Assembly (NCBI RefSeq): GCF_053078305.1
Contig: NZ_CP166879.1
Strand: one strand, 5' to 3'
Length of the DNA: 64,000 nucleotides
This document shows positions 14,881-18,714 of this stretch, piece by piece. Each line of letters begins with the position of its first letter. Position 1 is the stretch's first letter. The position numbers were made by a program, and so were the translations under genes. Below the pieces are notes generated by a model. The model ran no database searches and was not told the DNA's origin. It saw only the letters and a program-made list of their open reading frames with translations.

Positions 14881-15456
14881 TCACCGTATACAGGAGAATG
14901 CCGTCGTGACCCGCTTCACGCCACTCACCCTACTGGCAATATCTGCTGCCGCTCGCCCTTCCTGCTCTGTAACCAGGCCCAGTAAAAAGACTTCGCTGTT
15001 TTCTGTCACCACCTTGACACTGGATGATTTGACACGGGCACTTGTGAGTAACTGAGAACGAATTTTTGTCGTGAGCCAGGCATCACCAGCCATTATGACC
15101 GGACTGACGGGAGTCCCCTGCCGGATTTCATTATAGACCTCCTTAACACCATCGACACCGAGTGCTATCTGACGGGCACGGGCAGATAATTCACGGTCCG
15201 GAGACTGACCGATCAGCAGCACGCGTCCCTGATATGCAATCTCACTGATGCGTGCTTCTTTTCTGATTTGTTCATCTTTTGAAAGTGCACTGCTGACCCT
15301 CAGCTCCAGCACTTCATCATCCACCTGCGTTCCGACACTGCGTGGGTCGGTTGCAGCCTTTGTCCCGACAGCAGCTGTACCCACCACAGCGGCAGCCACG
15401 CACCCCTGTAACAATAAGGCTGAAGTAAGGACAACAGCAGAATATAATAAACGCAT
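14881..15456 (-). CDS. BON-domain lipoprotein, DolP/YraP paralog
   Basis: 191 aa; lipobox LLQGC; highly similar along its length to E. coli YraP/DolP as recalled. Confidence 0.8.
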   Translation of the reverse strand: MRLLYSAVVLTSALLLQGCVAAAVVGTAAVGTKAATDPRSVGTQVDDEVLELRVSSALSKDEQIRKEARISEIAYQGRVLLIGQSPDRELSARARQIALGVDGVKEVYNEIRQGTPVSPVIMAGDAWLTTKIRSQLLTSARVKSSSVKVVTENSEVFLLGLVTEQEGRAAADIASRVSGVKRVTTAFSCIR

Positions 15457-15805
15457 ATCTCCCCCGGAATTTATCGTACAAAAAGTTTACCTTCAGTGAA
15501 ACAAAACAAGCTACGGACTGTTATTCTCCTCCGCCCCAGCCGGAAACAGCGGATACGTTACGTGGCATATCTGTATCTGCCAGACGGAAATGTTTATGCC
15601 GGATATGGATGTACTGAAATTTAATATTGATCATGTTTTTTGCACGAAAACTTTGATATCGCCGTAAAGATTCTGTTTTTTTAACTACCTGGTTTGCTGA
15701 ACAGGATCTCCTTTTTCGTTATACACAGGCTAAAAGGCACCGTGGAGCCCCCGGTGCCTTTTTCATAAAACAGAGAAAACACGGCTTTGAATATACCGTT
15801 TATGA

Positions 15806-16033
15806 TTACCGTTCGCCCTTTTCTGACTCATCTTCAAGGAGTTTCTGGATTTCTCTTTTGATCTCAAGTTTTTCAAGCTTCAGCCTGACCACTTTCGTCG
15901 AATACGCTGAACCAAACTCATCTTCAATTCTTTTTATTTCGTGATCAAGTTTATTATGCTTTTCAAATAAAGAATCAAAGCGTTTATGATTTCCTTTCAA
16001 TGCTGAAATCAGTTCTCTGTACTCCGGGAACAT
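15806..16033 (-). CDS. YdcH-like small protein (DUF465 family)
   Basis: 75 aa; MFPEYRELISALK...FEKHNKLDHEI resembles E. coli YdcH. Confidence 0.7.
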   Translation of the reverse strand: MFPEYRELISALKGNHKRFDSLFEKHNKLDHEIKRIEDEFGSAYSTKVVRLKLEKLEIKREIQKLLEDESEKGER

Positions 16034-16149
16034 TGTTTTTATCTCCTTTCAACAACACTGTAACAACAAATATAAACATTAATATTATTAAAGATTCTCA
16101 CCATCAGTATTCGCAGTGAATAATGCAGCGTCTCATATTCATACCCTGC

Positions 16150-16321
16150 AGAGAAAACCCCTCCGAAGAGGGGCGAGTGTAGCGTAATGGAGTGTTATGT
16201 AGCATGGTGCCGGGTGCCTCCCGGTGAGTTCAGTATCAGCACCTGAACCCGCACAGATAAGGGATGTGACCAAACACCTACGATACTGATATGCCCCGCC
16301 GCTCAGGGGGATTCACCATGC
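16150..16321 (-). ncRNA. candidate small RNA, copy 1 (unidentified family)
   Basis: Minus-strand unit with sigma70-like promoter (TTGTCG, 17 bp spacer, TTAAAA), conserved 5' block GCAUGGUGAAUCCCCCUG, internal hairpin GCCGGGUGCCUCCCGG and an intrinsic terminator CCCCUC-UUCG-GAGGGG followed by UUUUCUCU; no long conserved ORF. Confidence 0.4.
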
Positions 16322-16609
16322 ATTATTTTTTTAACAAATATCCCGTAAGACCGACAATAATCCACTGACTGAACTGTGAAGTATTTAACATTTACCGATA
16401 AAAAGCTGCAGCTGCAGTGGAAAAATACGAAATCACATCATGCCCGATTGCTGACTCGCATCCTGCCAATCGAACGTCGGGCGAACAACTGATCGAATAC
16501 ATCGGAATCCGCAGACAAAAAGCACTGCAGTCTCACGACTGTGCGTTATATATGTCAGCGCCTGTAATATAAGACGGTAATGGGGTCAAAAATCGTGGCG
16601 TTGGCATAT

Positions 16610-16770
16610 ACAAAACAAAACGCCCCTCCGTAGAGGGGCTGACGCTGCGTATCTGTATCATCATGCGCATGGTGCCGGGTGCCTCCCGGTGAACAAACCG
16701 TTCGTGATACCAGTCAGCAACATAGGAAATTAATGGTATCACCCCACCGCACAGGGGGATTCACCATGCC
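16610..16770 (-). ncRNA. candidate small RNA, copy 2 (paralog of copy 1)
   Basis: Same architecture as copy 1: promoter TTGTCC, 17 bp spacer, CTAAAA; conserved 5' block; terminator GCCCCUC-UACG-GAGGGGC followed by GUUUUGUUUUG. Confidence 0.4.
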
Positions 16771-17171
16771 TGCCTTTTTTAGCAAATTCATCAGAAACCG
16801 GACAACATGCTTATTTATGAAATGAGGTGCTTTTCACATTTATATAAAATCATTATAACGATAATCCTAAAAATCAATGTAATTATCATCTTCAGTAACT
16901 TTCTGTATTACACCATACGGAAATTGATTTTTGACGGTAAAGATACAAGGGGAAGTATGTCTGTAAGGAGTACCCTGAATAATGGACAGGCATGCATCGT
17001 GGCTGTTCCCCTGAAATTATCAGTACAACCAGTCAGCTCATAATCCCTGTCTCTTTTTCCGGGGAGCCCTCAGGGGGACTTTCCCTTATCCCCCCAGTTT
17101 CTGGAGAGACGTAAAAAAGAATTAATCATATGTCAGGTATCTGAATATGTCCCGTAATTAATATATTTACG

Positions 17172-18263
17172 TCAGGATTTTTTCTGCCCGCCAGGAGTAT
17201 GAACATCTTCCGCCGTTGAGTCTGTCATATCCATTTTTTTCTGTGCCAGTACTTCATCTGATTTTTCTTTTTCCAGACTCTCCTGCTGCATCCCGTGAGC
17301 CGGAGCATATACAAGCTCAGCCATCACTGGAAAATGATCTGAACCCATATCCGGTAAACGGCGTAAACTTTTAAGCAGAAAATGCTGGCTGTGAAATACA
17401 TGGTCAAGCGGCCATCGCAGGAAAAAATAATGGCTGTGAAACGTGCTAAAAAAACCACGTCCCCGGCGTGGATTCAGCAGTCCACTTATTTTCATGAATA
17501 AACGAGTGGTCGCAGACCACGCAACATCATTCAGATCCCCCGCTAATATTACAGGTAATTCAGAATCTGCAACACTTTTCCCGACCATTAAAAGTTCTGA
17601 GTCACGATCAGTTGACTCATCACTTTCAGTCGGGCTCGGTGGAACAGGATGAAAACAATGTAATCTTATTCTCTGACCTTCCGGCATATGAACTATCATA
17701 TGCATGGAGGGAATTTCCTTGTCCACTAAATACTGTATTTCTGCATCACTTAAAATCATCCTTGAATATACATGCATGCCATATAAATTTTCTTTCGGGC
17801 ATTTCAGGGAGTATGGAAACACTTCATCCAGAGGTGATAGTTTCTGTTCCCACCATAAGTTTGTTTCAAGAAGAACAAGTATATCAGGTTTTTCTTTATT
17901 TATAAGTTCAAGCAAAGGCATATATTTTTTATTGGTCATAAGGACATTGAATACCAGTATACTTAAACCCGGAAATCCATCAGAGTCCTTTATTTCCTTT
18001 ACCTGCTTCTTGCCAATTACTGTATAAGGAATTATCCATACCAACTGGTAAGCGACACAAATTAAACTTATTATCACAACAAACAACTCTGCAAATGAGT
18101 CAAGAAAAACAACAGACAGAAAAACATTCAAAGTACACAGCAAAAGTATCTGTAGTCGGGGAAAATCCCATACCCTGACAACCCATGATGTATTACCGGA
18201 AACAGGGATAAAAGTTATGACTGCCAGAAGGATAGCAGTAAAAATAAAAACACAAGTTATCAC
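17172..18263 (-). CDS. membrane-anchored endonuclease/exonuclease/phosphatase (EEP) family protein
   Basis: 363 aa; about three N-terminal TM helices followed by an EEP-like domain (ILAGDLND...GSDHFPV). Confidence 0.7.
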   Translation of the reverse strand: MITCVFIFTAILLAVITFIPVSGNTSWVVRVWDFPRLQILLLCTLNVFLSVVFLDSFAELFVVIISLICVAYQLVWIIPYTVIGKKQVKEIKDSDGFPGLSILVFNVLMTNKKYMPLLELINKEKPDILVLLETNLWWEQKLSPLDEVFPYSLKCPKENLYGMHVYSRMILSDAEIQYLVDKEIPSMHMIVHMPEGQRIRLHCFHPVPPSPTESDESTDRDSELLMVGKSVADSELPVILAGDLNDVAWSATTRLFMKISGLLNPRRGRGFFSTFHSHYFFLRWPLDHVFHSQHFLLKSLRRLPDMGSDHFPVMAELVYAPAHGMQQESLEKEKSDEVLAQKKMDMTDSTAEDVHTPGGQKKS

Positions 18264-18525
18264 AAATCACTCCTTGTTCTGAACCGGCACACAAAACTGT
18301 CATATACGTTTCAAAAGTAAAAACACACTGCTGCCACAAGATTCACGACGTAACCGGGCAGCATATCCTGATTACGGACAATCCATGAAACCGCCTCGCC
18401 AGAAGCGTCCATCACATCCGGTTTTTCCCTGTTTTATATTCCACGAACCATTTTATTTTCAGGAATCTCCGGGCCTTTATCCCGCATCATATACACAGCT
18501 ATGACAACCCGCTCTTCTGCAGTCA

Positions 18526-18714
18526 TCATTTCCCCGTGGCTTCGCGGATTTTCTGTTCCGTCTTATACTGCGAAAGCGCATACACAGCCCATATTGTTGC
18601 CGGTATCCAGCCCAGCAGCGTTATCTGTAACACCAGACAAAAAATCCCCGTCAGAGGCCGGCCAATGGTGAAAAAAGTCAGCCAGGGAAGAAGAAAAGCA
18701 ATCAACAGACGCAT
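18526..18714 (-). CDS. Pmp3/YqaE-family small membrane protein
   Basis: 62 aa, two predicted TM helices, pattern resembling UPF0057 proteolipids. Confidence 0.5.
   Translation of the reverse strand: MRLLIAFLLPWLTFFTIGRPLTGIFCLVLQITLLGWIPATIWAVYALSQYKTEQKIREATGK

Follow-up and report, generated by a model that had tools for sequence, protein, structure and literature searches.

DolP (YraP) of Escherichia coli is a current focus of work on the function of the β-barrel assembly machinery (BAM), septal envelope remodelling and outer-membrane lipid sensing. Residues W127 and L137, in helix 1 of its second BON domain (BON2), are critical for binding of phosphatidylglycerol and cardiolipin and for DolP function (PMC7806268), and DolP is reported to support BamA folding (PMC8081527). 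STnc100 is a prophage-associated small RNA (sRNA) and a relative of PasD, and has been linked to the sialate-esterase genes found downstream of stx (bioRxiv 10.64898/2026.05.13.724894; PMC12370729). In the literature, no paper on an island-borne DolP/YraP paralog and no functional study of the DUF465/YdcH family were found. Here, positions 14881 to 18714 of a 64,000-nucleotide stretch of contig NZ_CP166879.1 (NCBI RefSeq assembly GCF_053078305.1; the whole stretch is referred to below as the window) were analyzed. This interval carries genes for a DolP paralog (designated DolP2), a DUF465 protein, a membrane-anchored enzyme of the endonuclease/exonuclease/phosphatase (EEP) family and a Pmp3-like proteolipid, together with two STnc100 sRNA genes. 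It is probably a seam at which three cargo pieces, each inherited on its own, meet on an E. coli island of the pheV/pheU type; one of them, unit C, is conserved, and its DolP2 would be a second DolP.

To delimit the pieces, the window was compared by blastn with twelve related loci, each given an L number. The features are listed below; every one between 14881 and 18714 lies on the minus strand.

14758-16580, minus strand: unit C, containing STnc100-a, the DUF465 gene and DolP2 (blastn breakpoints)
18318 to ~16600, minus strand: unit B, containing the EEP gene and STnc100-b (blastn breakpoints)
down to 18318, minus strand: unit A, the tail of the adhesin locus, with the LuxR-type regulator, Pmp3 and a 31-aa open reading frame (ORF) (blastn breakpoints)
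18318, no strand: seam between unit A and unit B (blastn breakpoint)
14881-15456, minus strand: DolP2, DolP/YraP paralog of 191 aa (two BON stretches, NCBIfam, structure match)
15730-15763, minus strand: hairpin and T-run, likely terminator or attenuator between the DUF465 gene and DolP2 (folding energy -20.7 kcal/mol)
15806-16033, minus strand: DUF465 (YdcH-family) protein of 75 aa (Pfam, NCBIfam)
16148-16350, minus strand: STnc100-a sRNA gene with its own terminator (Rfam RF02076, 136.8 bits)
16610-16798, minus strand: STnc100-b sRNA gene, 3′ end of unit B, with its terminator at the B/C seam (Rfam RF02076, 98.4 bits)
17172-18263, minus strand: EEP-family enzyme of 363 aa with three transmembrane (TM) helices and a catalytic domain, unit B (Pfam Exo_endo_phos)
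18434-18529, minus strand: 31-aa ORF, unit A (ORF call; its ATG overlaps the Pmp3 stop codon as ATGA)
18526-18714, minus strand: Pmp3/YqaE-family proteolipid of 62 aa, unit A (Pfam Pmp3)
18789-19304, minus strand: LuxR/GerE-type regulator of 171 aa, adhesin locus, context of unit A (profile match)

For the two loci with an MscS-type gene (L026 and L028), homology with the window, followed from the adhesin side, ended at 18318, 55 nt before the EEP start codon. The locus in which the trio of unit C comes after a cluster for sialic-acid utilisation whose last gene encodes a SASA esterase (L017) was homologous over 16580-14758, and the locus in which the trio is flanked by insertion sequence (IS) elements (L002) over 16399-14758; position 14758 was the end of homology in every context compared. 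In strains RM10410, STEC17-190 and SCU-171, the DolP2 unit (C) and the Pmp3 unit (A) were at different chromosomal loci. Successive gaps between features in the window were 262, 373, 259, 114 and 349 nt, the four protein genes were set apart by gaps of 260-1140 nt and by terminators, and a sequence scan detected a hairpin plus T-run at three sites between genes. Breakpoints, gaps, hairpin sites and separate loci therefore do not describe the anatomy of an operon or of a co-transferred module.

Accessory status was examined in a census of 5426 complete E. coli genomes, in which the island DolP2 was counted at a nucleotide identity of at least 90%. Core dolP was present in 5424 genomes, ydcH in 5411 and yqaE in 5417, while the island copies were present in 26 (DolP2), 34 (Pmp3-like) and 8 (full-length EEP). 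None of the core neighbourhoods of K-12 (diaA-dolP-yraQ, opgD-ydcH-rimL and kbp-yqaE-ygaV) matches the setting of the island genes, the nucleotide identity of island DolP2 to core dolP is only ~70%, and GC content is 0.41-0.48 over the interval (0.44 across the whole). Strain S19-141 contains a 100% identical DolP2 and a second dolP place. Because the core copies are near-universal, the island copies rare, the neighbourhoods different and the GC content low, DolP2, the DUF465 protein, the Pmp3-like protein and the EEP enzyme are accessory genes, and the DolP-, YdcH- and YqaE-like copies are additions to the core ones.

The preliminary description of this locus, which was based on the letters and ORFs, had proposed accessory paralogs rather than sole core copies, and the census agrees with it. 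All of the genes that it named and both sRNA genes are present, with Pfam, NCBIfam and Rfam scores far beyond chance, and the comparison with the chromosomal copies that it suggested gave amino acid identities to K-12 of 75% for DolP2 (over all 191 aa, gap-free) and 58% for the DUF465 protein, which is not at the core ydcH position; synteny differed from the core neighbourhoods. Its island setting was likewise borne out by the low GC content and by what surrounds the interval: IS elements and a broken gene for a serine protease autotransporter of the Enterobacteriaceae (SPATE) upstream, and LuxR-type regulators, YadA-like adhesins and a giant adhesin of a type I secretion system (T1SS) downstream. 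The whole block recurs in 8 complete genomes at 98-99.5% identity, with 99.5% for the block of E. coli Z1323MEC0001. In related strains, the block adjoins tRNA-Phe, either at pheV, where yqgA/speC are the neighbours, or on the pheU side close to dsbD; genes for a tyrosine recombinase, a TraI_2-type relaxase and a UvrD-like helicase accompany it there. Automatic annotation names all four genes, and RefSeq labels the DolP-like protein 'dolP'.

DolP2 matches Pfam BON in two stretches (E = 1.4e-30), scores 295.8 bits against the NCBIfam DolP equivalog NF008247 (cut-off 184) and aligns with the solved DolP/YraP structure 7a2d (E = 1.2e-77). As read from the translation, it has a lipoprotein signal peptide with the lipobox LLQG-C19 (within LLLQG-C19) and Val20 at +2, i.e., there is no inner-membrane retention residue. 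In the lipid-binding helix, W127, T130, K131, R133, S134, Q135 and L137 are kept; residues 120-126 are VIMAGDA in DolP2 and GEASNDT in DolP, with E121, S123, N124 and T126 replaced by hydrophobic or small residues, and the changes in BON2 helix 1 are G120V, E121I, S123A, N124G, T126A and I128L. The segment MAGDAW is common to DolP2 and a variant that is 84% identical to it (L014-L016). Because the lipobox, both BON domains and W127/L137 are kept, DolP2 would most likely act as a second DolP. Members of the DolP2 clade (82-100% identity) came from E. coli only and are 70-78% identical to the core DolPs of all Enterobacteriaceae sampled. A search for a donor genus with neighbouring ydcH and dolP genes found none; no donor is apparent because the clade is about equidistant from all sampled core DolPs. 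Plasmid-borne DolP copies were also considered and set aside, as the matches came down to chromosomal sequences listed under plasmids, or to distant BON proteins.

The DUF465 protein scores 43.6 bits against Pfam DUF465 (cut-off 25) and 91.5 bits against the NCBIfam YdcH equivalog, which is borderline at a cut-off of 91, and matches HP1242 (PDB 1zhc) at E = 8e-12. When compared with the variant at L014, the ratio of nonsynonymous to synonymous substitution rates (dN/dS) was 0.12 for the DUF465 gene (dS 0.69) and 0.17 for DolP2 (dS 0.49); both genes are therefore kept under purifying selection. They were intact in every annotated carrier seen, and one locus (L030) contained an uncalled remnant of DUF465/DolP2 at 82% identity. 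The hairpin at 15730-15763 lies directly after the DUF465 stop codon, and the L014 variant keeps it (-17.6 kcal/mol) with both arms changed (GGCACC...GGTGCC versus TGCACC...GGTGCA).

STnc100, the DUF465 gene and DolP2 keep one order and orientation in all contexts found, at 84-100% identity, and this trio is the sole part of the interval that is kept together as a unit. Its settings were next to a sialate-esterase cluster, IS elements or the EEP gene or, for the 84% variant (a figure that is the DolP2 protein identity), in a backbone resembling an integrative and conjugative element (ICE) with ArdC-like, DUF1281, methyltransferase, PilI, UvrD-like helicase, TraI_2 relaxase and integrase genes and tRNA-Phe; no adhesin is near that variant. 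Unit C is near the integrase/relaxase end of the pheV/pheU islands. Three tandem STAXI RNA elements (RF01728; L014 1238-1653) were also observed near the integrase end of the ICE-like island.

Accessory DUF465 genes have a wider spread and a greater diversity than DolP2, with variants of 65-97% identity that E. coli also carries, and the accessory DUF465 family is common mobile-element cargo. Divergent members were seen at L038 6001-6222, L040 6001-6216 and L036 2938-3156, in an Escherichia marmotae IncFII plasmid near hok/sok and repA, in a phage-like element where two nanS-p-type esterase genes are its neighbours, and in Morganella, where the gene sits between an inverse autotransporter gene and a YadA-like gene. 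At these divergent loci (Morganella, E. marmotae plasmid and phage-like element), neither DolP2 nor STnc100 at gathering score was found. A general coupling of STnc100 to DUF465 was thus rejected, since the link is confined to the DolP2 lineage. A search of phages with the DUF465 protein found nothing.

Both STnc100 copies match Rfam RF02076 over model positions 1-206 (gathering score 47), and each has its own hairpin and T-run. STnc100-a terminates 114 nt upstream of the DUF465 gene, the distance from sRNA terminator to start codon being only 65-114 nt, and STnc100 is also upstream of DUF465 in L002, L003, L014-L017 and L022. The STnc100-b type is always ~370 nt downstream of the EEP gene and was seen after it in L027, L030 and L032. 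In L027 (~7916-8102) and L032 (~7914-8099), a single b/a hybrid STnc100 is present, with breakpoints at 16624 and 16227 of the window. The STnc100 copies sit at the seams of cargo units and act as recombination substrates; their hybrid forms and seam positions are in line with a published proposal in which cargo is reshuffled by recombination around elements of this kind. When 50,697 phage records were searched at the DNA level, the matches were to the STnc100 copies only, plus contaminating core dolP. A phage origin of the protein genes was discarded, as phage records matched STnc100 only and the DUF465 gene was absent from the phage collection. An anti-phage defence role was dropped after a scan with PADLOC models gave no meaningful match (marginal matches only, E > 0.002).

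The EEP enzyme matches Pfam Exo_endo_phos (E = 2.8e-34) over residues 104-310 and has N-terminal helices at 2-22, 36-52 and 57-80 (AlphaFold2 model with a mean predicted local distance difference test score of 88.7, and hydropathy). N106, E133, D243, N245, D309 and H310 are invariant across 30 EEP homologs, and W27, R30 and F34-P35-R36 of the first loop are conserved. By analogy with the EEP fold in general, the invariant positions would correspond to the metal-binding and catalytic motif. The family is large (~360-aa proteins, 6244 matches at E <= 0.001), and the closest relatives outside E. coli are chromosomal Serratia proteins with 60-62% identity. A sequence search of solved structures found none that matches. 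Foldseek with the model gave human nSMase2 (8J2F, 2e-11), TDP2 (3e-11) and nocturnin/APE1 (~1e-10 to 1e-9); assigning a substrate class from structure was abandoned because fold scores were alike for sphingomyelinase-like and TDP2/APE1-like enzymes.

In the window, the EEP ORF and its catalytic residues are intact. In S19-141 the gene has an internal stop, in 6 genomes it has a 71% truncation, and in ~320 genomes a 97-nt relic is next to pap or sfa/hly clusters. The EEP gene is foreign, of Serratia-like origin, and is being lost in E. coli. Relics of 90-100 nt were observed in uropathogenic-type islands beside pap and sfa/hly in E. coli NU14 (L034 7010-7099) and the ~320 genomes, the NU14 relic coming after the same 68-aa and 158-aa small genes that are found in the adhesin locus, and a truncated form of 273 aa was observed at L035 7001-7822. 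No Pmp3, BON or DUF465 genes were found in EEP contexts of Serratia, Ewingella, Rahnella, Massilia and Vibrio. In Ewingella and Rahnella (L010/L011 3327-6128; L023/L024 2180-5110), an EEP homolog is 7-145 nt downstream of an eptA-like gene and behind a two-component system. This phosphoethanolamine transferase neighbour is a possible hint of lipid- or lipopolysaccharide-related chemistry for the EEP family. Conserved EEP partners were ruled out, as the eptA-like gene was found only in Ewingella and Rahnella and no partner was conserved in Serratia, Massilia or Vibrio.

The Pmp3-like protein scores 36.2 bits against Pfam Pmp3 (cut-off 22.9) and is 31% identical to K-12 YqaE; NCBIfam models gave no match. 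Its gene starts 74 nt downstream of the LuxR-type regulator gene, and the order of YadA-like, 68-aa, 158-aa and GerE-type 171-aa genes upstream of it is kept in all loci. Pmp3 therefore belongs with the adhesin locus and its regulators. In L026 and L028, MscS-like, PAPS-reductase and NERD-UvrD genes replace the EEP gene after Pmp3. The 31-aa ORF is within the 98%-identical block, and a counterpart is called in L026 (6186-6281) between Pmp3 and the MscS-like gene, which begins 4 nt after it. This arrangement suggests a tight operon of Pmp3, micro-ORF and mechanosensitive channel, from which the window lost the channel and gained EEP. In S19-141, Pmp3 is truncated.

The proposed roles of the products differ between units. 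DolP2 would be exported, lipidated at Cys19 and anchored in the outer membrane, and would bind phospholipid via a BON2 helix with a more hydrophobic N-terminal half and a possibly altered lipid preference. It could thereby add DolP-type activity (BAM support and outer-membrane integrity) where the β-barrel adhesins of the island load the outer membrane. The DUF465 protein may be a small helical partner in the cytoplasm, whose expression would start a short way past the sRNA terminator. The EEP enzyme would be a membrane-tethered, probably cytoplasm-facing phosphodiesterase under loss in E. coli, and Pmp3 would work with the adhesin locus or the alternative MscS neighbour, not with DolP2. A further proposal is that the trio forms a mobile cassette for outer-membrane homeostasis, in which YdcH-like and DolP-like proteins belong to one pathway, DolP2 is specialised to sustain BAM and the outer membrane under autotransporter load (trimeric and classical), and the sRNA promoter and terminator set expression by read-through; this is speculative and rather unlikely to be right. 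If true, it would give a first functional handle on the DUF465/YdcH family.

Several other explanations were weighed against the seam of three cargo pieces. The preliminary description had suggested that the genes may make up a module for envelope stress or membrane remodelling that travels with the adhesin island; in its full form, this reading has the four genes and two sRNAs as a coherent unit under shared regulation and transferred jointly with the island. Consistent with this are the single strand throughout, the low-GC island rich in outer-membrane adhesins, the membrane or envelope nature of 3/4 of the proteins and the presence of the complete block in the 8 genomes described above; however, the genes differ in genome counts, occupy separate loci within the same genomes and are divided by breakpoints, terminators and long gaps. 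Alternative neighbours (MscS-like after Pmp3, sialate esterase before STnc100-DUF465) replace parts of the block, most carriers have the EEP gene as a pseudogene, a truncated form or a relic, and EEP homologs in other genera have no such neighbourhood. These comparisons do not support the module, which is distinctly unlikely. That the whole interval is decaying hitch-hiker DNA without current function is less likely still: EEP decay is widespread, Pmp3 is truncated in S19-141, the L030 remnant exists, and the block is bordered by IS elements and a broken SPATE gene, but no annotated carrier seen has a damaged DolP2 or DUF465 gene, dN/dS values are 0.12-0.17 at dS ~0.5-0.7, and the EEP ORF of the window retains its catalytic residues.

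DolP2, with or without DUF465, could instead be a dedicated helper of the type V adhesins of the island, like lipoproteins that assist particular trimeric autotransporters, and not a general back-up DolP. In the 96-100% clade, a YadA-like adhesin or ESPR/SPATE remnant (as in the window) lies beyond the DolP2 3′ end; the Morganella DUF465 gene has two autotransporter-type neighbours; DolP is reported to support BamA folding, as cited above; and a 1454-aa YadA-like protein with a BamE/OmpA partner in the same window indicates that adhesin-plus-helper pairs occur on the island. Against this, conserved homology ends at 14758, short of the adhesin genes, DolP2 and the neighbouring adhesin are convergent rather than co-oriented, the 84% variant is in an ICE-like backbone without a nearby adhesin, and the adhesin-adjacent cases are all one island lineage, so a helper role is unlikely. 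There is next to no chance that the genes are ordinary core dolP, ydcH and yqaE in a divergent backbone, and for E. coli carriers this is refuted. The DolP-like protein does pass the NCBIfam DolP equivalog cut-off and bears the RefSeq label, yet the neighbourhoods are non-core, nucleotide identity to core dolP is low, essentially all E. coli have the core copies, S19-141 has both, and in other strains the block is next to tRNA-Phe, an integrase and a relaxase.

The seam of independent cargo with a second DolP in unit C has its own points against it. Five of the twelve lipid-contacting residues of BON2 helix 1 are changed (G120V, E121I, S123A, N124G and T126A), and with these contacts altered, the lipid specificity or function of DolP2 may differ from that of DolP. 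A simple pattern search for the sigma-E consensus GAACTT-N15-17-TCNRA found no match near or upstream of DolP2, and a sigma-70 promoter scan of the interval gave chance level only. All DolP2 contexts are one E. coli island family, and the conservation of unit C is not phylogenetically independent support for a functional link. The core copies of the source strain are deduced from E. coli genomes with 99.5-100% identical blocks. The EEP N-terminus is uncharged, loop 1 carries R30/R36, loop 2 carries D55/E59, and KKQVK follows TM3; with this distribution, the positive-inside rule, as sole guide, gives a topology that is probably N-out with a cytoplasm-facing catalytic domain; an envelope role would therefore be weaker. 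As EEP and Pmp3 are both intact in the window, they may have a local joint function.

Overall, the interval is ordinary island cargo with one modestly interesting unit, STnc100-DUF465-DolP2. For genome scans, the same-strand adjacency of thematically similar island genes reflected no module here, and the sRNA copies mark recombination seams between cargo units. DolP2 is a natural, horizontally carried paralog and a tool for structure-function work, as it keeps W127/L137 while the first half of the helix is rewritten; it may show how adhesin-rich pathogenic E. coli handle outer-membrane load. Clues to DUF465 function are very few, and the constant DUF465-DolP2 pairing is among them.

Other parts of the window were also recorded. 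On the minus strand, 12269-14276 contains three consecutive ORFs with an ESPR signal peptide, a Peptidase_S6 domain and a PIC/Hap β-solenoid fragment; these ORFs are the broken SPATE autotransporter gene, and IS110/IS3 transposase genes (8831-12240) flank it. A cluster of aspartate ammonia-lyase, C4-dicarboxylate transporter, hypT-like and racemase genes (3364-8490) is 89.7% identical to E. coli genomes, with 96-99% for other parts of the window; it could be an accessory copy that has diverged, or could indicate that the lineage is a non-typical Escherichia. At 18789-35883 (minus strand) are genes for a TolC-like protein, a T1SS ABC transporter, an HlyD-like protein, a 2357-aa repeat adhesin, a 642-aa RTX-repeat protein, a YadA-like protein, small ORFs and two LuxR-type regulators, a layout that may resemble the tosRCBDAEF adhesin operon with its TosE/TosF regulators. 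At 37541-42703 (minus strand), a 1454-aa YadA-like trimeric autotransporter (38339-42703) is followed after 24 nt by a 257-aa BamE plus OmpA protein (37541-38314). This looks like a pair of adhesin and periplasmic/peptidoglycan-binding helper, possibly comparable to TpgA-AtaA or SadB-SadA.

Among known systems, the pheV/pheU pathogenicity islands of Shiga toxin-producing E. coli lacking the locus of enterocyte effacement (locus of adhesion and autoaggregation, LAA type; PMC5539235, PMC6174562) share their insertion sites with the related loci and have similar cargo (iha, btuB, a phosphotransferase system cluster, a phosphoethanolamine-transferase remnant and adhesins); YraP/DolP, DUF465 and EEP genes are mentioned in neither LAA paper. 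The EEP enzyme has the same fold as membrane-tethered EEP enzymes (COG3021/YafD-type) and differs from them in its three N-terminal TM helices; its homologs are chromosomal in Serratia, Rahnella and Ewingella. The Pmp3-like protein resembles YqaE/Pmp3 proteolipids in size (~60 aa) and in having two hydrophobic segments; unlike YqaE, it has a 10-aa charged C-terminal tail, a link to the LuxR-type regulator of the adhesin locus and an overlapping 31-aa ORF. As in the STnc100/PasD family of Stx prophages, one related locus has a copy right after a sialate-esterase (SASA) gene, whereas the copies described here are on a tRNA-Phe island, duplicated, at seams and upstream of a DUF465 gene. The DUF465 protein, like YdcH and H. 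pylori HP1242 (PDB 1ZHC), is a small helical protein of ~75 aa; unlike core YdcH, it falls in a diverse accessory clade whose members are carried by islands, an IncFII plasmid and a phage-like element. DolP2 is equal in length to E. coli DolP (YraP; PDB 7A2D; PMC7806268, PMC8081527) and has the lipobox Cys19 and two BON domains; unlike DolP, it is island-borne, outside diaA-dolP-yraQ and preceded by a DUF465 gene and STnc100, and it is thus a paralog, not an ortholog.

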